This document shows, piece after piece, positions 1 to 7,835 of a stretch of 44,724 nt of DNA; positions within the stretch are counted from its first letter, which is position 1; the number at the start of each line of letters is the position of its first letter. The stretch is from the NCBI GenBank assembly GCA_025471175.1, contig GCA_025471175.1_4338.1, one strand, 5' to 3'. The notes under the pieces are model-generated. The model made no database searches, had not been told where the DNA came from, and saw only the letters and a program-made list of their open reading frames with translations. The DNA comes from a phage. Made by a program: the position numbers and the translations under genes.

Positions 1-31
1 AAAAAAAAATCCCGGCTGGGTCAGGGCCGGG
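1..31 (-). terminator. candidate rho-independent terminator (minus-strand transcript)
   Basis: GC hairpin cccggc-N9-gccggg at ~11-31 directly preceded on + strand by A9 (U9 after the hairpin on the minus transcript); at window edge, context incomplete. Confidence 0.45.
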
Positions 32-213
32 AGAAACAGAGAGCAGAGGGATGATACAGGAGGTTGGTGAAACCAGTATGAAGCTGCCGTTGTTGGGTGT
101 CAACAGAGATTTCCGGCTCGCGTTACCGCACATCGGCCTGACCTTGTCACAGGTCCGCGCGGGGGATGATACCCGGAATGCCCGCAATGTTGTTTATCTT
201 CTGTTGACGAAAT

Positions 214-240
214 AAAACCCGGATTCGCGGTCCGGGTTTC
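214..240 (-). terminator. candidate rho-independent terminator downstream of lysozyme gene
   Basis: 7-bp stem acccgga/tccgggt with 7-nt loop; on minus strand followed by UUUAUUU; ~40 nt past the lysozyme stop. Confidence 0.5.
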
Positions 241-277
241 GGGGTGGGGTTAGCACAAACAGCGCAGGGTGATTATA

Positions 278-766
278 TCAGCCTTTCACCGCACGTCCAA
301 TAGCAACCGCCTCTTGCCACGGTTTACCGTCGAACAGTGCCAGACGCCCGGCAGTACGTCGGCGCAGTCCAAGTAACGGTTTACCATTCTGGTTGATGAA
401 CAGTGCCAGCTTAGCCCGTAGCGTCTGCGCATCACCAGCGCGCAGCGCCTTACCCGTGCCTGTAGTAGCCGCAATCACGCCAGCACCCGCGTTAAACACC
501 AGGTCGCACACCGCATCGAACTGACCCTGCGTCAGCGAGTGATGCGCTGCGGCGTCAACGGCGGCTACTGCCTTAGCCATATCGCGATTCAGTAACAGGA
601 GGCCTTGGCCCGGGGTGATGGTCTTGCCAGGTGTTACGTCCGGCCCATAATGCCCATAGCCTATCGTCAGGTACTTCTCGTTCGGCGTAGCGCGATACGC
701 AGTTCCGCGGAATCCCTCAAACGCAGCGGTGAAATGCAATCCATTATCTGAGATATTTCGAGACAC
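278..766 (-). CDS. endolysin, phage lysozyme (GH24-like)
   Basis: ORF track 278..817 begins at TTG; better start is GTG at 764-766 with GGAGG 8 nt upstream. N-terminus ISDNGLHFTAAFEGFRGTAYRATPNEKYLTIGYGH matches the phage lysozyme signature. Confidence 0.85.
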   Translation of the reverse strand: MSRNISDNGLHFTAAFEGFRGTAYRATPNEKYLTIGYGHYGPDVTPGKTITPGQGLLLLNRDMAKAVAAVDAAAHHSLTQGQFDAVCDLVFNAGAGVIAATTGTGKALRAGDAQTLRAKLALFINQNGKPLLGLRRRTAGRLALFDGKPWQEAVAIGRAVKG

Positions 767-1016
767 GCTTATATCCTCCGTATGACAGCCACGCCTGACG
801 AATCTGGCGTAGCGCAACTAATGTGATTAACGTCTCTGGCAGCGTCGGTGACATGCTGCCCTGTAACAGGTGGATACATCCGGCAGCGCAGACGATAGCA
901 GTCAGGATGTAGAGCACCCGACCAAATAGCCCATCGTCAACGCTGGGATGATACACATTAAACAGCGATGTACCCCCTATTGCCAGCATACCGCCGAACC
1001 AGAATAACTCATTCAT
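744..1016 (-). CDS. small membrane protein, holin/antiholin candidate
   Basis: 90 aa, two hydrophobic segments by eye, ATG start, overlaps lysozyme start; directly upstream of endolysin. Confidence 0.5.
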   Translation of the reverse strand: MNELFWFGGMLAIGGTSLFNVYHPSVDDGLFGRVLYILTAIVCAAGCIHLLQGSMSPTLPETLITLVALRQIRQAWLSYGGYKRVSKYLR

Positions 1017-1317
1017 CCGAGCCTCCTCGACGTGAGATGTATTCTCCGGCGACGATACCGGAGAGGCGGGAATAGATAGGCATCCAGAGAATAGCGATAA
1101 TGAATCCGAGGCCAGCTATCTCGCGCTCCCCGGTAATGCCGAACCATTGAGCTGCGAGAGGTGCGCCAAATACAGCGCAAGTGAAGCCAGTTGCGATAAA
1201 GCAGAAGCCGTCTATGGGACCAGAAATAACGGACTTATGTTGTCGTAGCCCGATTACCCCACCGGCTAGTGCGGCGGCGAGAAGCCACCCCGTCACTGTT
1301 TCAGTAAATTTATCCAA
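1009..1317 (-). CDS. holin-like membrane protein
   Basis: 102 aa with about three hydrophobic segments and charged C-terminus; TTG start preceded by GGAGGA; 8-nt overlap with next gene. Confidence 0.5.
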   Translation of the reverse strand: MDKFTETVTGWLLAAALAGGVIGLRQHKSVISGPIDGFCFIATGFTCAVFGAPLAAQWFGITGEREIAGLGFIIAILWMPIYSRLSGIVAGEYISRRGGSDE

Positions 1318-1381
1318 GATGAATCCTCCAGGTGCGTATTAAGTATGCAGTAACTGGAGGATACCACGGGTAGGAATTATC

Positions 1382-1816
1382 TTAATAGTTGTTTGGTAAT
1401 AACCTTGCCCCAGTGTTAGTGTCGAATTGCGCGGCTACAGTAATCGCACGTGTTGCCGTATTACCTAAATACATAGCCGCCAGTGCATAAGGTGCACCGG
1501 AACCGACGGCGGCAAAACCATCCGCAACAGGGATAACCGAACTTAGTGCACAATCCCAGGATTTGTAGATCTCTACTTTGCACAACGTTTCGATGTCTTT
1601 AACCCACACCAAAGCAGAGAAATCAAAATCGTAGTGCTTAGGTACTAAAATACTATCGTCCTTCACTAAAAGGATACCAGCCTCAGCATTGCCTGCTACA
1701 CCGATAACAGCAAAATCATTCTCGTATATCTTTGTGTCTGTGTTGTAATAGTTACCCCCGCACACAACACGGGTATCACTGGCCATCGTCTTTCCGTCAA
1801 ACGCGATAGTAGTCAT
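1382..1816 (-). CDS. HslV / proteasome beta-subunit-like Ntn-hydrolase peptidase
   Basis: 144 aa; N-terminal MTTIAFDG (Thr right after Met, as HslV MTTIV); KIYENDFAVIGVAGNAEAG and FAAVGSGAPYALAAMYLG resemble HslV KVIAGFAGGTADA and IAIGSGGPYAQAAARALL; GGAGG RBS; ATGA overlap with upstream gene. Confidence 0.55.
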   Translation of the reverse strand: MTTIAFDGKTMASDTRVVCGGNYYNTDTKIYENDFAVIGVAGNAEAGILLVKDDSILVPKHYDFDFSALVWVKDIETLCKVEIYKSWDCALSSVIPVADGFAAVGSGAPYALAAMYLGNTATRAITVAAQFDTNTGARLLPNNY

Positions 1817-2106
1817 TTGTGCCTCCAGATGTATTGTCGTCTCTGGGGTTTCGTCGGAATATCATCGTACCCCAGCGATTTCCAGTAATTAAATAGCCGG
1901 TTCGCAATAGCTGCGCGTTCCTTTGTCTTGAACTCACCGAGATTCACGGCCTTTCCGTTCTGGAACCCGCAGGCGCGTATAGCTTTGCGTCGGGCCTGAA
2001 TCTCAGGGTACATCGCGTTACCCCGACGCTTGTATATCCGGGTGTTCGCTCTCGGCGACAGCGGCGCAAGGCCGCTTCGTTTCAGGATGTCAGTTGCGAG
2101 GCTCAT
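1813..2106 (-). CDS. hypothetical protein (97 aa)
   Basis: ORF track 1813..2151; start moved to ATG at 2104-2106, which overlaps the upstream stop (ATGA coupling). Confidence 0.45.
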   Translation of the reverse strand: MSLATDILKRSGLAPLSPRANTRIYKRRGNAMYPEIQARRKAIRACGFQNGKAVNLGEFKTKERAAIANRLFNYWKSLGYDDIPTKPQRRQYIWRHK

Positions 2107-2297
2107 ATTCCGAGAATCTCGCGGGCCATTTCTTCTGTAACTTTCGAACAAGGTGCGTACATTACCTGTTCGGCGAATTCACGTAACTTTGCTTCAAGTT
2201 TCAGATAAGCGTCATACTCTACATAATCGCCGTATGCATACTCAGCCATCTCAGGCTCTGGCAGACCCCACGCTTTTACCTCATATCTCTGCACCAT
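2103..2297 (-). CDS. hypothetical protein (64 aa)
   Basis: ORF track 2103..2342; internal ATG at 2295-2297 overlaps upstream stop. Confidence 0.4.
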   Translation of the reverse strand: MVQRYEVKAWGLPEPEMAEYAYGDYVEYDAYLKLEAKLREFAEQVMYAPCSKVTEEMAREILGI

Positions 2298-2575
2298 CAA
2301 TCCACCCCTTCCACATGTGTAACCGACCCACAGTTCGCGCACTCGACGTAATCAGGGAACTGGTCTTTGTATTTCTGTAACTCAGCGTTCACTTCTGCCA
2401 GTCTTGACACAAGCCCCTCTATCTCCATGTCCGTAGCGGTTATGTAGTCCTGGAAACTGTCATCCAGTTCCTTGTAATCTTCGTATCTTACATAACGCCC
2501 TTCATGCGAGTCAGGGACAGGCGTTATATCTACTGCACCTGCAAAATCTTCTGTTAAGTCGTATCGTACAACCAT
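2297..2575 (-). CDS. hypothetical protein (about 92 aa)
   Basis: ORF track 2297..2581 (GTG); ATG at 2573-2575 has AGGAGAAG upstream; acidic, CxxC near C-terminus. Confidence 0.45.
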   Translation of the reverse strand: MVVRYDLTEDFAGAVDITPVPDSHEGRYVRYEDYKELDDSFQDYITATDMEIEGLVSRLAEVNAELQKYKDQFPDYVECANCGSVTHVEGVD

Positions 2576-2577
2576 AA

Positions 2578-2781
2578 TCACTTCTCCTGTTTACCAAGTC
2601 GCTTAGGTGAGCAGATAGCGCGTACCTCTGGGTCGTTGGGCTTGTCACCCTGAAACAGAAAGTGCGCGTTCTCTGCGGCGCGTGCCGCAGCCTGGCACGC
2701 ATCCAGTGAGTAAAACGTTTCTGTTGCCGCTAGTTGTAACTGGCATGCGGTAAGTGTCCAGATAAATAAGATGCTGGTCAT
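2578..2781 (-). CDS. small putative lipoprotein
   Basis: ORF track 2578..2796; ATG at 2779-2781 overlaps upstream stop; MTSILFIWTLTAC looks like signal peptide plus lipobox Cys. Confidence 0.4.
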   Translation of the reverse strand: MTSILFIWTLTACQLQLAATETFYSLDACQAAARAAENAHFLFQGDKPNDPEVRAICSPKRLGKQEK

Positions 2782-3302
2782 TTGGTCACCCCACATTTAG
2801 AGCACTGCTGTAAGTCGCTACACCACAGAACCAAACGATAGTCATGTTCACATTCCTGTGTGTCAATCTTGTATTCCACTATGTCTGCGTATGTTCCATC
2901 CCAAATCCACGACCGCTTTTCTGCTGCTACACTGTGTTTCGGCTCCTCCCCGTTGCGATACCGGATAAATACCATAGTCCCATCCGGCACAGGTTGTCGT
3001 GCACCATAATGCGGCCTCCAGGCGTTGTACTGAGTATTTTCTTTGCAGCAACCGGATTGCTCCATGGCATCGATGTATTCTCCAATGTCACCGGTAGACT
3101 TAGCTATCTCTTTACGCAAACGAACGACGGTGCTATTGGCGATATCAAGTTCTTTCTGTAACTCAGCCACCAGCGTCGACGCATCACGTAACTGATTCTT
3201 GAGTAACAACACCTCGTGTGCCAGGTCTTCACACTGGTTGCCATTTACCAGCTGCCGTAACTGGCCAATCAGGTACTCGAATACTTCGTTTTTGTTACCC
3301 AT
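2778..3302 (-). CDS. hypothetical protein, coiled-coil N-terminus
   Basis: 174 aa; ATG with AGGAGA RBS; first gene after promoter at 3333-3361. Confidence 0.55.
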   Translation of the reverse strand: MGNKNEVFEYLIGQLRQLVNGNQCEDLAHEVLLLKNQLRDASTLVAELQKELDIANSTVVRLRKEIAKSTGDIGEYIDAMEQSGCCKENTQYNAWRPHYGARQPVPDGTMVFIRYRNGEEPKHSVAAEKRSWIWDGTYADIVEYKIDTQECEHDYRLVLWCSDLQQCSKCGVTK

Positions 3303-3332
3303 CTCTGTCTCTCCTCTCGTTTGTGTAAATGA

Positions 3333-3361
3333 ATAGTAGCCTATTCTATCCCAGTGTGCAA
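3333..3361 (-). promoter_or_regulatory. sigma70-like promoter with AATAG-N4-CTATT element
   Basis: Read on minus strand: TTGCAC-N17-TACTAT; spacer/-10 carries AATAGtagcCTATT; ~25 nt upstream of gene start 3302. Confidence 0.5.
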
Positions 3362-3436
3362 GTAAATTTTATTAGTGTTTGTATTGTTGCATCTCCTGCA
3401 ATAGTCGCTTCGATTGTTGCGTTTGGTGAAATAGAA

Positions 3437-3475
3437 CAAAAATGAGAAAAATGATACGCTGCTGTGTAGCAGCGT
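3437..3475 (-). terminator. rho-independent terminator ending the 4543-3518 operon
   Basis: Hairpin acgctgct-gtgt-agcagcgt (3456-3475) followed on minus strand by U-rich run. Confidence 0.5.
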
Positions 3476-3517
3476 AAGTCACTCAGTAAAATCCCAAACT
3501 ATTGTTACAATATAACA

Positions 3518-3718
3518 TCACACTTCCGGCGGCTCGGGTAACGGCATCCAGTGGGTAACAAACTTATCGTAGTGATTCCAGAAAGGCTTTCTCGCATCAT
3601 CAGGGACGATGTAATAATCGTGCTGCACTGCGTTATTCAACGTTTCATACCCCAGGAACTCCTTATCCGTATACCCATTGCCCGGCAGCATCCCACTACA
3701 CTTAATCCACTTACCCAT
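3518..3718 (-). CDS. hypothetical protein (66 aa)
   Basis: ORF track; ATG start; last gene before terminator. Confidence 0.45.
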   Translation of the reverse strand: MGKWIKCSGMLPGNGYTDKEFLGYETLNNAVQHDYYIVPDDARKPFWNHYDKFVTHWMPLPEPPEV

Positions 3719-3721
3719 ATC

Positions 3722-3877
3722 TCACCTCGGATTCGCAACAGACAACACAACAGACAACACACCAGCTTTCCACGCCCGCCACGCGAGACGCGTCTTAACG
3801 TTCAGGTACTCTTTCTTCGAACCCTTGTTGACCGGCAGACCCTCCACGACGGCCCACCGTTCGAATGCTTCTCTCAT
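3722..3877 (-). CDS. hypothetical small protein (51 aa)
   Basis: Below ORF-track cutoff; ATG at 3875-3877 overlaps stop of upstream small ORF (ATGA); GAGG upstream. Confidence 0.35.
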   Translation of the reverse strand: MREAFERWAVVEGLPVNKGSKKEYLNVKTRLAWRAWKAGVLSVVLSVANPR

Positions 3878-4029
3878 ACCAGAACCTCGCATTCATCCCG
3901 ATACACGAACAATAACGACCCTTTCCACTCAATCATAAAACCATAATGGTTGCTGCTGAACGCCAGAAAAACATCACCTATCGAGATACCGAAATCGATA
4001 AGCCTGCGGTCAGTTATTCGAATTCTCAT
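3874..4029 (-). CDS. hypothetical small protein (51 aa)
   Basis: Below ORF-track cutoff; ATG at 4027-4029; stop overlaps next ATG. Confidence 0.3.
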   Translation of the reverse strand: MRIRITDRRLIDFGISIGDVFLAFSSNHYGFMIEWKGSLLFVYRDECEVLV

Positions 4030-4089
4030 ACCAACCCCCACAACGCGTGCGCCACGTAAACGGCGCTGACAATTAAAATAAACGGATAG

Positions 4090-4347
4090 TTATTCACGGC
4101 AACCTCCCTCAGAGTCGTCGGCACGAGCATCATGATTCGATGCCGTTCTGAATGTTACCGCTGGTGTGCCCAGGACATTCACGGTAAAGGCTTCACCATG
4201 TGATTGCTCTAAATCCCACTCATCACCTTCCTCGTCTAAAACGTAGAGACGACCGTCGTAGTGTACTTTCAACGAATACTCGTTGCCTTTTATAAACCAA
4301 CCGCCCATTTCTGCTTTAGACTCAATACAAATTAATTCTTCCATCAC
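4090..4347 (-). CDS. hypothetical protein (85 aa)
   Basis: ORF track; AAGGG RBS before ATG. Confidence 0.45.
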   Translation of the reverse strand: MMEELICIESKAEMGGWFIKGNEYSLKVHYDGRLYVLDEEGDEWDLEQSHGEAFTVNVLGTPAVTFRTASNHDARADDSEGGCRE

Positions 4348-4534
4348 TTCGCCCTTTGAATTTAAAATTGTTGCCTATGAGCTTCATTTCATACTCTCGG
4401 TAATACGCCGTGGAACTTAACCCGTGCTCCCTGAGTAAGCTAACGACATAAGAACTTCGGTACACTGTCGATTTCTTTTCAATAATACCTAAGCTACCGT
4501 ACATCGTTTTCACCAACTGACCCTTCCTAAACAT
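4322..4534 (-). CDS. hypothetical protein (about 70 aa)
   Basis: ORF track 4322..4543 (GTG); third in-frame ATG at 4532-4534 sits 8 nt after GAGGAG. Confidence 0.45.
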   Translation of the reverse strand: MFRKGQLVKTMYGSLGIIEKKSTVYRSSYVVSLLREHGLSSTAYYREYEMKLIGNNFKFKGRSDGRINLY

Positions 4535-4569
4535 AACCATCACTCCTCTGTCTCATCCCGATAAGTGAA

Positions 4570-4598
4570 TAGTATCCTATTATGTTGGGGTGTGCAAG
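4570..4598 (-). promoter_or_regulatory. sigma70-like early promoter (leftward)
   Basis: Minus strand TTGCAC-N17-TACTAT; a ~37-nt block here is the exact reverse complement of the block at 27502-27538. Confidence 0.55.
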
Positions 4599-4644
4599 AG
4601 GATAGTTACGTTGCCGTTGTGATTCTTTCGTTTAATGGGATAGC

Positions 4645-4679
4645 GAGCGAAACGAAACGAACGTGGTGCCGAAGGCACC
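4645..4679 (-). terminator. candidate intrinsic terminator/attenuator after leader copy A
   Basis: On minus strand ggugcc-UUCG-ggcacc hairpin (forward 4665-4679) followed by acguucguuucguuucg. Confidence 0.4.
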
Positions 4680-4860
4680 AAGAGTGAGTGAGTGAGCTTG
4701 CGGTTCTGACCCACGGCAAATCAGTAACTTAGATATTTAGGCGGGAATTACAATAGACTTTGGCCCTTCCGAATGCGCCAGCGAGCCTCACTCCACACGT
4801 CGAGACGTGCTCGTTTCGCCTGCCGCGCACCGCGGTCGCTTGTTCATACTTCACAAGCTC
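4645..4860 (-). ncRNA. candidate ~200-nt leader RNA / sRNA, copy A
   Basis: Predicted transcript from promoter 4867-4895 to terminator at ~4645-4679; 5' ~110 nt homologous to copy B, including a 34-nt identical block (4830-4863). Confidence 0.3.
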
Positions 4861-4895
4861 AGGACGAGCTTAGCATATTTCTTAGTAAAAGTCAA
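4751..4895. repeat. copy A of a ~145-bp dispersed repeat (other copy 37062-37204)
   Basis: Left block caatagaNtNtggcccttccgaaNgcgNcagcg 29/33 identical; divergent ~45-nt middle; 34-nt perfect block ccgcggtcgcttgttcatacttcacaagctcagg; similar right flank. Confidence 0.7.
4867..4895 (-). promoter_or_regulatory. promoter P_A (extended -10), leftward
   Basis: Minus strand TTGACT-N17-TAAGCT with TGc before the -10; same architecture as P_B at 37176-37204. Confidence 0.5.
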
Positions 4896-4942
4896 TACCA
4901 GTAGCATCTTTTGTATCTTAGTAACTTTGTGTGGTGTTTTGG

Positions 4943-4971
4943 TTGCTTTTACAAAGTTACCGCCTTATACT
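4943..4971 (+). promoter_or_regulatory. sigma70-like early promoter (rightward)
   Basis: TTGCTT-N17-TATACT, ~30 nt upstream of the ATG at 5001. Confidence 0.45.
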
Positions 4972-5000
4972 TCGGTACATCTTACATAGGAGAACGTGAA

Positions 5001-5171
5001 ATGACTATCAATGAAGTAGCTGAACGTATTGGGGTGACGCGCCAGACAATTAATAACTGGATTAAGAGTGGAAAGTTTCCTGATTGCAGCGTTAAAGTAA
5101 TGGGTCGCCGGATGCCGGGGACATTTGACCGTAATAAAGTTGAAGCGTGGATTAAGGAGAACGTGAAATGA
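5001..5171 (+). CDS. small HTH DNA-binding protein (AlpA/excisionase-like HTH)
   Basis: ORF track 4911..5171 (TTG); ATG at 5001 with AGGAG 8 nt upstream; MTINEVAERIGVTRQTINNWIKSGKFP is a helix-turn-helix. Confidence 0.6.
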   Translation: MTINEVAERIGVTRQTINNWIKSGKFPDCSVKVMGRRMPGTFDRNKVEAWIKENVK

Positions 5172-5380
5172 TTGGGCGTATGGGTTGTTACTTTGAAAAC
5201 GGTAAAGTTAAATACTGGTTTAAGTTTGCGTCAGAAATTACCGACAGCGGTTTCTACGCAGAAATATGTAAGCCTAATCATTTGTCGGAACCGACGCGCA
5301 TTATTAAGATGCCAATCGAGGTGTTAAGTAAATGCCGTTTCTATACTTCGGAGCGTGCGTGGTTTGCCGGCGATAAATAA
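5168..5380 (+). CDS. hypothetical protein (70 aa)
   Basis: ORF track; ATGA overlap with upstream gene; same 16-nt initiation region aggagaacgtgaaatga as the gene at 5001. Confidence 0.5.
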   Translation: MIGRMGCYFENGKVKYWFKFASEITDSGFYAEICKPNHLSEPTRIIKMPIEVLSKCRFYTSERAWFAGDK

Positions 5381-5448
5381 AAGAAACCCCAACGCCAGAA
5401 CGTCGGGGTCGAAGCACAAATCATCAAAGTAAGCACAAGGATTATACA

Positions 5449-5577
5449 ATGACGAAGTTAATAGTTCCACAGCTACGCCGCCAGAAACACGGCGCTGATT
5501 TCTTCGCACCGGTAAAGATGAACCGCGCAATGCGCCGTATGCAGGAAGCCTTAGAACGTGCGGAGAAAAAGAAATGA
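5449..5577 (+). CDS. hypothetical small basic protein (42 aa)
   Basis: Below ORF-track cutoff; AAGG RBS; stop overlaps ATG of primase-helicase. Confidence 0.35.
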   Translation: MTKLIVPQLRRQKHGADFFAPVKMNRAMRRMQEALERAEKKK

Positions 5578-7835
5578 ATATTGTTTTTGCAACGCTGCGT
5601 AATACATTCGATAAAAACCCGGTAGCCCGTGAAATGCCACTGGAGCAGTTTGTAGAGTATGTCTGCGATACATCGAAGCGCCTGTCCGTAGACCCGTCAT
5701 GGACTAAGGAAGAGTACGACGCGGCCAAGATTAAGCAGAAAGCAATTGCGCCTGTTGGTGGTCGCCGTAAGAACGCGATTCTGGAAGATAGTGTGGTTAA
5801 GTTCGACTTTGACCATCTCAACCGTACTCAGTACCGCGACCTGACCCGCAAATTCAAGAACGCTCCGTTCTTCAATATTCTGCACACAACGGCGTCGCAT
5901 CAGCACGCGTGTAAAAACGGTGATTACGCCTTTCGCGTTCTGGTTCCGGCTCGCACTCCGTTTAACTCTAACGACGCGTGGATGGTGCAACGTGCTATTT
6001 GTGCGGAGTTAGAAATAGACGAAGCGTTGCGCGACCACTGCACGGAAGACGGCAACCGCCTTATCTACCTGCCGCACAAAGAGTCGAAGATAACGGTTAC
6101 AGAAGGGCGTGTCATCCGTGCGGAGCGGTACATCAAGAAAGCCGAAGAGATGGGGCTGCGTAAACGTGAAGCTAAGACACTTGCCGCCGATGAGCACGGG
6201 CTTAACGCAGATATAGCGCATTTCTGCGAAGCAGAGCTTGGCCTTGACGCTTTATCTTCCGGGCGTGGGTATGAAGTGCCGTGCCCTAACGAACATCTAC
6301 ATACAGGCAAAGGCTCCACCAGCATCATGCTTGATGGTAAAGAAGTGCGCTTTGTGTGCCAGCACACGAATAACGGTGCTTGCACTGAGCTTAACCGCCG
6401 GCAACATTTGGCTTTGCGCATGTGCGGCCTGCCTGACGAGCTTAACGTAGACAAGCAACCTATCAGTATTAACAGCATTCGTGCGGCTCTGCCTGATTTA
6501 CCGGACGAAGATATTGAAGAACTACACCGCACAGAGAACGAGGAGCCTGTAACTTGTACGCTGGAAGACCTCGAAGACGAGCCGGAAGTAGAAAAAGAAC
6601 CTGCTTACCCCGTAGTAGACGGCCTTATGCAGACCAATGAGTCATTCTACATTTGCGCAAAGTCCCACACTGGTAAGTCAACATTTAGTATGGCGATTGA
6701 TGCTGCTATCGCCGCCGAAAAAAGATATGCGTTCGGCGGGGCTGAGGTCGCGGAAGGTCATGTGTTTATTTTTGCGGGTGAAGGTGCGCAGTCGTTCGAA
6801 CGACATAAAAAATCTTTGCAGATTGCCCTTGGCGATAACTTGGACCGCTTGCACATTATCGATTGTGTTGCGGAGGGGTGTAACTTACTAGACGAAGCAT
6901 GGCGACGTCAGGCGGTGAGAATGATGCGCCGTGTTGCCGGTGAAGAGAGAATTGTAAAGGTTACGTTTGATACTCTACAAACTTGCATACCGGGCTTCGA
7001 CGAGAACGACAACAGGTCGATGAAAGAAGCTGCGCAGGCGCTTAACGAAATAGCATCGACGCTTAACGCCGCGGTAGGTGCTATGGTGCACCCGACTAAA
7101 AACATCGATGAAACCGTACCATCCGAGAACGGCATGATGCCGAAGGGTGGTAGTGATTTTCACAACTCCATCGATAACGGGATGTTCCTGCATAAGCCGG
7201 ACAACGACAATAACTTAGAGATAAACCTGTATCACATAAAGAACAGAAACGGAGAACGGCAGAAAGCCAGAGGATTCGTAATACAGAAGATTCAGATAGC
7301 GGAACCGCCAGAAAAGAAAGAACCAACTCACAACTTCATGGGTCTTCCGGAAGGGTACAGTAGCGATGATGTACGCGATTTTGACGCAGGAAATCCACAT
7401 ATTGACGTCTTTGTTAACTTCAACGCCTTCTCTGTCTTCGTGAAGAAAGTAGAAGGCATGACCGACGAACAGAAGGAAGCAGTTAAAGAAAAGGTAGGCC
7501 AGTTCGAGAAACTGGATACCAAAGAAGCTACGGTTATTTACGCATTAGGTAAATTGCAGGAGCAGGGTGATGACAAGCGAGGGTTCTCCATGTCAGCTAT
7601 CGTCAAAGCCGCGAAAGAAGATAGTTACGGCGTGCCGATTAACGCTAATAACGACCTTAGAAAGAAACTGGAAGAGATGCACGAGGCCGGGGTTATAGTC
7701 TCAGGTCTGGATAACAACAACAGGCCCATACCTAAGCAGTACCGGCTGCCGTGGGGTATAAACGATAACAAGATTCCGAAGACAATATACGAGCCCAATG
7801 AGATGCTGACAGTGACAGAGGAGGATTTGGAATAG
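5574..7835 (+). CDS. putative DNA primase-helicase
   Basis: 753 aa; P-loop AKSHTGKST in C-terminal half; N-terminal half has Cys/His cluster and FDFDH-type motif suggesting a primase domain; first large gene of replication module. Confidence 0.65.
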   Translation: MNIVFATLRNTFDKNPVAREMPLEQFVEYVCDTSKRLSVDPSWTKEEYDAAKIKQKAIAPVGGRRKNAILEDSVVKFDFDHLNRTQYRDLTRKFKNAPFFNILHTTASHQHACKNGDYAFRVLVPARTPFNSNDAWMVQRAICAELEIDEALRDHCTEDGNRLIYLPHKESKITVTEGRVIRAERYIKKAEEMGLRKREAKTLAADEHGLNADIAHFCEAELGLDALSSGRGYEVPCPNEHLHTGKGSTSIMLDGKEVRFVCQHTNNGACTELNRRQHLALRMCGLPDELNVDKQPISINSIRAALPDLPDEDIEELHRTENEEPVTCTLEDLEDEPEVEKEPAYPVVDGLMQTNESFYICAKSHTGKSTFSMAIDAAIAAEKRYAFGGAEVAEGHVFIFAGEGAQSFERHKKSLQIALGDNLDRLHIIDCVAEGCNLLDEAWRRQAVRMMRRVAGEERIVKVTFDTLQTCIPGFDENDNRSMKEAAQALNEIASTLNAAVGAMVHPTKNIDETVPSENGMMPKGGSDFHNSIDNGMFLHKPDNDNNLEINLYHIKNRNGERQKARGFVIQKIQIAEPPEKKEPTHNFMGLPEGYSSDDVRDFDAGNPHIDVFVNFNAFSVFVKKVEGMTDEQKEAVKEKVGQFEKLDTKEATVIYALGKLQEQGDDKRGFSMSAIVKAAKEDSYGVPINANNDLRKKLEEMHEAGVIVSGLDNNNRPIPKQYRLPWGINDNKIPKTIYEPNEMLTVTEEDLE

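Follow-up and report, generated by a model that had tools for sequence, protein, structure and literature searches.

A phage-borne proteasome homologue of the PPH family beside the lysis genes of an apparent Kagunavirus genome

The open reading frame at 1382..1816 (minus strand) of the DNA analysed here, a stretch of 44,724 nucleotides that we call the window, is a real gene for a 144-residue proteasome-like Ntn (N-terminal threonine) hydrolase. Its assignment to the proteasome superfamily (MEROPS T1) and, within it, to PPH, introduced in 2021 as the first proteasome homologue that is truly viral (Fuchs et al., PMC8665760), is on its own near certain. This identification is correct but already known, the window gene being another PPH member. 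With regard to function, we lean slightly towards a composite reading in which PPH would be an accessory threonine peptidase that assembles by itself and acts without HslU or a dedicated ATPase.

The gene and the family to which it belongs

The whole 44.7-kb window appears to be the complete genome of a virulent Kagunavirus (Guernseyvirinae) phage of E. coli, and its DNA is 85-90% identical to that of phages such as vB_VIPECOMC04, Snoke, and 590B. The sequence is filed as an E. coli TPA contig, and the identical PPH protein in NCBI is labelled 'hypothetical protein'. No DNA match to the PPH gene was found in 5,426 complete E. coli genomes, and it is therefore not a prophage gene there.

A Shine-Dalgarno sequence, GGAGG (1822..1826, minus), stands 5 nt 5' of the PPH ATG, at the place where a ribosome-binding site is annotated in phage Snoke. 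In the tetranucleotide ATGA (1813..1816, minus), the start codon shares bases with the stop of the phrog_9632 gene just upstream (1813-2151, minus; function not assigned), an arrangement that suggests translational coupling of the two genes, and further upstream lie small, close-packed genes without assigned function. Immediately 3' of PPH, on the same strand, are a holin gene (phrog_2359, 1009..1317), a second holin gene (phrog_2508, 744..1016), and the endolysin gene (phrog_33703 / phrog_7, 278..817), so that an earlier description of this DNA, made from its letters alone and referred to below as the preliminary description, was right to place the gene beside a lysis cassette. Guernseyvirinae conserve the gene order phrog_9632, PPH, holin, holin, endolysin, and PPH is probably co-transcribed with the lysis genes in these phages. 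The putative transcription unit that runs through PPH was deduced from how closely the genes are packed and from terminator annotations in phage Snoke; our own scan of positions 1-6500 for promoters and terminators returned counts no higher than those in shuffled sequence. Some distance upstream of PPH, about 1.6 kb, a GC-rich hairpin of 9 bp with a T-tract behind it (3455-3476, minus) separates two small leftward genes, and it may delimit the unit that continues into the lysis genes. A paper on the transcriptome of Kagunavirus K1B4 does not mention the PPH gene.

The window protein matches PHROG 1040 ('peptidase HslV family') with E=3.7e-33, has 303 close homologues, and is matched by 4194 cluster representatives (50% identity) at E<=1e-3, while the median pairwise dN/dS among 18 Guernseyvirinae PPH copies is 0.14 (range 0.03-0.24), a value that indicates purifying selection. 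Because of these four results, we reject a chance open reading frame, from which the gene is far removed. Homologues occur in 340 phage records, at least 327 IMG/VR stretches were confirmed to encode a relative, and 41 viral structure clusters in BFVD share the PPH fold at E<=1e-3. Nearly all of the cluster representatives align starting at their own residue 1, and the family therefore lacks a propeptide.

Searches with the single sequence were weak: Pfam returned no match to the window protein alone even at E<=10, NCBIfam gave only sub-threshold matches, and phmmer against the PDB reached only E values of about 0.25-0.56 by way of the GSG motif. Profiles were therefore needed. The family profile was built from an alignment, A2, of 46 diverse relatives that are 29-39% identical to the window protein; 36 of the 46 relatives match the Pfam Proteasome family (PF00227) at E<=1, the best at 2.8e-10. 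Against the PDB, the A2 profile found proteasome beta5 at 4e-12, HslV at 5e-12, and BPH (the betaproteobacterial proteasome homologue; PDB 5ovs/5ovu) at 5e-9, and the window protein lies at an equal distance from HslV, from 20S beta subunits, and from BPH. The preliminary description had proposed an HslV or proteasome-like peptidase. Its superfamily half is borne out by profile, fold, and conserved residues, whereas the orthology with HslV that the name implies is not. An HslV orthologue was rejected, with 13.4 bits against a cut-off of 157.75 for the model TIGR03692 and 12.5 against 137 for NF003964.

PPH was characterised by a length of about 140 residues, the absence of helix H2, and occurrence in Caudovirales phages or prophages, mainly of Proteobacteria (PMC8665760; reference sequence WP_042125023.1), and the assignment of the window protein follows these defining features. 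The likeness covers the length of about 140 residues, the lack of a propeptide, of H2, and of the C-terminal S12/H5 extension, the retention of the catalytic Thr1, Asp17, Lys33, and Gly47, and residence in tailed phages of Proteobacteria; there is no substantive difference, although the window copy has a frameshifted last strand. The missing S12/H5 extension is apparent from the alignment to beta5, which ends at the last core strand. BPH, in contrast, has about 200 residues, both apical helices, and a long acidic pore loop (PMC8665760), and it is encoded on bacterial chromosomes whereas the window PPH is phage-borne. The beta subunits of the 20S proteasome, beta5 for example, also have about 200 residues, compared with 144 in the window PPH, which lacks their propeptide, H2, and an alpha-ring partner.

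A phage protease of this kind had seemed unusual in the preliminary description, but it is not new. In GenBank, Snoke gp70 is already a 'protease; HHpred 99.66 to H. influenzae HslV', other relatives have been named 'peptidase HslV family protein' by PHROGs-based pipelines, and the lack of hslU beside such phage genes had been pointed out in a paper on jumbo phages (PMC7823757). Our literature search for experiments with phage HslV or PPH, for a link to anti-defence, and for a Guernseyvirinae protease returned only Fuchs et al. 2021 and remarks in genome announcements.

Active site, fold, and the docking of HslU

The protein begins with MTTIAFDGKTMASDTRVV (MTTIAFDGK...), and its residues 103-115, AVGSGAPYALAAM, include GSGAPYALAAM; the reading frame, the Thr directly after Met, and the GSGxPYA block are all present as first described. 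Thr2 (codon 1811..1813), which would become Thr1 after removal of Met, is the predicted nucleophile and aligns with Thr1 of beta5. Asp14 (1775..1777) corresponds to proteasome Asp17 and is aligned to the AADSR of beta5, Lys29 (1730..1732) corresponds to Lys33 and is aligned both to Lys33 of beta5 and to the VKKV segment of HslV, and Gly42 (1691..1693) is aligned to beta5 as the equivalent of Gly47 in the oxyanion hole. Gly105-Ser106-Gly107 (1496..1504) align to the GSG of HslV, BPH, and beta5, that is, to proteasome Gly-Ser129-Gly. All of these residues, whose codons are on the minus strand, are invariant across the 46 diverse homologues. The preliminary description had conceded that assignment to an unrelated family, or catalytic Thr, Lys, and Ser positions that vary among homologues, would speak against it; the family found is the proteasome superfamily, and Thr, Asp, Lys, Gly, and Ser are the same in the homologues throughout. 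Asp132..Thr135-Gly136 (1409..1423, minus), the counterparts of proteasome Asp166..Ser169-Gly170, align to the RDAYSGG of beta5, and at least 90% of the A2 sequences retain D132 and G136. M1 and A111 are likewise invariant in the 46 sequences of A2. In some Salmonella Jerseyvirus copies (L012 and L018), GTG replaces GSG, the Ser129 equivalent having become Thr.

An AF2 model of the window protein (pLDDT 89.3, pTM 0.84) predicts the alpha-beta-beta-alpha sandwich of the proteasome. Between the two halves of the sheet, the model has a single helix (residues 44-52), and H2 is missing. The predicted fold is all-soluble alpha/beta, and no membrane segment is predicted.

These features bear directly on whether PPH needs the unfoldase of its host. 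HslV (ClpQ), the peptidase of the bacterial HslUV protease, forms a dodecameric double hexamer that HslU activates. It has 176 residues and the window PPH 144, which is 32 fewer, as the preliminary description had noted in calling the protein shorter than HslV. Relative to HslV, the window PPH lacks H2 and part of the H3-H4 loop: a profile alignment to E. coli HslV (probability 96.6%) leaves HslV residues of about 62-85, helix H2, without a counterpart. HslV has two apical helices, H1 and H2, which form the HslU docking surface and the pocket for the HslU C-terminal tail, whereas the window PPH has only one. For docking, the C-terminal tails of HslU enter pockets formed where HslV subunits meet; Phe54, Phe57, and Gln114 line these pockets, and Ala79/Lys80 provide contacts (PMC6429459). 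In the alignment, the equivalents of Ala79/Lys80 fall within the deleted H2, and Phe54 and Phe57 correspond to Gly and Leu.

Neither the 44.7-kb window nor 80 IMG/VR viral loci contain an HslU-like open reading frame by tblastn with an approximate HslU query (best E=1.3, outside the window), a result in keeping with the absence of an HslU-like ATPase gene claimed in the preliminary description. A listing of the 25 commonest Pfam families in 150 dereplicated neighbour proteins does not include AAA+, and the annotation of a sibling genome lists no unfoldase. PPH has also been reported from Actinobacteria, a group without an HslV entry in Table 1 of PMC8665760, and Microbacterium phage WaterT has a proteasome-like 'protease' that is related but longer (176 aa), the match being confined to residues 87-139 of the window protein.

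Canonical HslU dependence of PPH is unlikely on these sequence comparisons because H2 is missing and the pocket residues Phe54 and Phe57 are not kept, neither the window nor the 80 loci yielded an HslU-like open reading frame, and PPH is reported from Actinobacteria; the dependence on host HslU that the preliminary description had entertained thus loses ground. It has been possible to imagine HslV-like rings of PPH that dock on host HslU hexamers and redirect ATP-dependent degradation to substrates of the phage's choosing. We regard this as quite unlikely, given the deletion of H2 with the Ala79/Lys80 contacts, the substitution of Phe54 and Phe57, scores of 13 bits against cut-offs of 137-158 for the HslV equivalog models, a family that is just as near to 20S beta and BPH as to HslV, its reported presence in Actinobacteria, and the proteasome-like 'protease' of WaterT. 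The loss of H2 argues against canonical docking, but it does not prove that PPH cannot bind HslU.

Loss from sibling phages and neighbourhoods elsewhere

PPH is present in about 39 of about 116 Kagunavirus-type records, the latter being the records that match the surrounding DNA, and roughly two thirds of these records seem to lack it. In vB_VIPECOTH07 and Schulenburg, the holin genes directly follow the phrog_9632 gene with no PPH between them. We aligned the junctions of these phages (L084:1219-1300 for vB_VIPECOTH07 and L085:1198-1280 for Schulenburg) with window positions 1290-1420 and 1790-1850, and in both, the final 5 codons of PPH with its stop (AAACCGTTATTA[A/G]GATAA) survive right after the phrog_9632 stop. 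This 3' remnant is a scar, and the gene was therefore lost by deletion rather than being ancestrally absent. Because the phrog_9632 gene persists in phages that lack PPH, it is not a dedicated PPH partner.

The siblings without PPH are viable isolated phages with the same head genes and with a holin-holin-endolysin cassette that is about 90% identical in DNA. PPH is dispensable in Kagunavirus, an optional accessory gene, and its absence from siblings with the same lysis cassette, together with its variable neighbours in other phages, indicates that it is not tied to lysis. These observations speak against PPH being essential to either the timing of lysis or the maturation of capsids.

A part in lysis could be envisaged in which PPH degrades an antiholin, a holin regulator, or an enzyme of envelope synthesis and thereby sets the time of lysis. 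The position of PPH directly upstream of holin, holin, and endolysin on the same strand across Guernseyvirinae is compatible with this idea, as is its position in two or three other lineages, where it abuts a lysis gene: in L045/L046/L075, where it comes after the DNA polymerase gene and faces a holin/endolysin pair, it abuts the endolysin gene, and in L048/L051, it adjoins an M15 peptidase gene. A precedent from the host is that overproduced HslV is reported to affect the turnover of LpxC (PMC7730581). We nevertheless find a timing function very improbable, since sibling Kagunaviruses with the nearly identical cassette have lost PPH cleanly and remain viable, most other lineages place the gene near terminase, portal, head, replication, or nucleotide-metabolism genes, and the protein is predicted to be soluble. 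The lysis-timing device suggested in the preliminary description is accordingly not supported by the comparison among phages.

The neighbourhood survey, in which about 1,500 open reading frames from 80 viral loci were clustered, revealed no neighbour common to PPH genes beyond Guernseyvirinae, and hence no conserved partner gene across the 80 loci. PPH lies between terS and terL in L023-L025 and L047 and just upstream of terL in L034/35, L038, L042/43, and L056. It occupies the third place in a T7-like series of portal, another gene, PPH, a 310-aa protein, and major head protein in L063 and L074, and it follows scaffold, MCP, and adaptor in L020. In L068/73/76 and in Vibrio phage 1.187.O, it stands beside PhoH and ThyX. 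Larger marine phages repeatedly have PhoH next to PPH, and the Vibrio phage 1.187.O protein (L087:3501-4304) is a 267-aa product in which a PPH domain is extended at the C-terminus, a layout that recalls the RPC group of Fuchs et al. The frequent location of PPH in or beside late modules suggests late expression without indicating any single process.

Where PPH sits inside morphogenesis modules, as it does in several unrelated phages (L063 and L074; L020; L023-L025 and L047), it might be thought to process a scaffold, capsid, or other structural protein during virion assembly, the more so because Kagunavirus has no annotated prohead protease. In assembly of the P22 type, a separate scaffolding protein is used and no protease is needed. 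Kagunavirus has such a separate scaffolding protein and hence requires no protease, the head genes are the same in siblings without PPH, and WaterT has a capsid maturation protease in addition to its proteasome-like 'protease'. A prohead protease is typically a conserved, indispensable gene of the head module, whereas the PPH of Guernseyvirinae lies outside that module and is absent from siblings. A role in virion maturation thus seems to us very improbable.

The window copy carries a blemish of its own. In a run of G residues (1408..1411, minus), it has a 1-nt deletion relative to all relatives (ACTGGGG-CAAG compared with ACCGGCGGCAAG), which shifts the last 8 codons of PPH and yields GARLLPNNY followed by a stop in place of GGKIITKQLLG and its stop. 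Among the homologues listed, which otherwise have 145-146 residues, this 144-aa form stands alone. It could be that this copy alone is a decaying or inactive gene: the deletion at 1408-1411 recurs in no other homologue seen, and PPH is demonstrably losable in Kagunavirus. Several points weigh against decay, which we judge distinctly unlikely. All of the catalytic residues lie upstream of the shift, the remainder of the reading frame is intact and 85-89% identical to its relatives, the AF2 model retains a predicted terminal strand (residues 141-144, mean pLDDT 82), and a deletion of a single nucleotide could be an assembly error. The frameshifted C-terminal strand may nonetheless impair the window copy.

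A putative accessory peptidase

In the reading that we prefer, host methionine aminopeptidase would remove Met1 and expose Thr as the nucleophile, by analogy with E. coli HslV. The protein would then assemble by itself and, in the manner proposed for BPH, may work as a threonine peptidase without HslU or a dedicated ATPase, with either one specific protein of phage or host origin or unfolded peptides as its substrate. Its activity would be a non-essential accessory function that raises fitness on some hosts only, and PPH would be part of neither the lysis machinery nor head maturation. Isolated subunits of HslV and the proteasome are poorly active without assembly or an activator, and PPH may thus rely on an additional activator.

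Proteolysis is not the only chemistry to consider. Ntn enzymes of the proteasome fold can be ligases, as connectase is, and hydrolysis of proteins by PPH is for this reason not guaranteed. Connectase, the archaeal MtrA ligase (PDB 6zw0), is a monomeric proteasome homologue, and it shows that the fold can serve beyond bulk proteolysis. PPH might likewise be a sequence-specific ligase or transpeptidase of that kind, or a small-molecule amidohydrolase that acts, for example, on a defence signal or a metabolite. The layout of connectase, in which the first helix pair is absent and a two-helix lid is inserted between S3 and S4, is not found in the window protein, and we consider a non-proteolytic enzyme of either sort rather unlikely.

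A bolder version of the unfoldase-independent reading is that PPH is a stand-alone threonine protease, or a specific ligase, with a quaternary structure unlike that of HslV or 20S, which destroys or modifies one host factor such as an immunity or stress-response protein. We offer this tentatively, as a proposal that is unlikely though not far-fetched. It would explain how purifying selection can coexist with repeated loss, why the gene is scattered over unrelated phages, and why the H1-loop and H3-H4 surfaces vary. PADLOC defence models did not match the window protein or three relatives. Should PPH indeed be independent of an ATPase and directed at a host factor, it would represent a new class of phage enzyme for host manipulation as well as a minimal model of proteasome evolution. 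Kagunaviruses are a convenient test system because they are small virulent phages of E. coli with natural siblings that have or lack PPH and differ by a clean deletion.

In a set of 118 close homologues, the variable positions cluster in residues 43-60, comprising H1 and the loop that follows, and in residues 116-127, comprising the H3-H4 loop and the start of H4, with mean column entropies of 0.85 and 1.04, respectively, compared with 0.18-0.48 elsewhere. In proteasome-like rings, these two surfaces are turned towards partners or the adjacent ring, and their variability in PPH is compatible with adaptation to variable targets. Within the alignment, the two blocks have the appearance of alternative mosaic alleles set in a catalytic core that is almost invariant.
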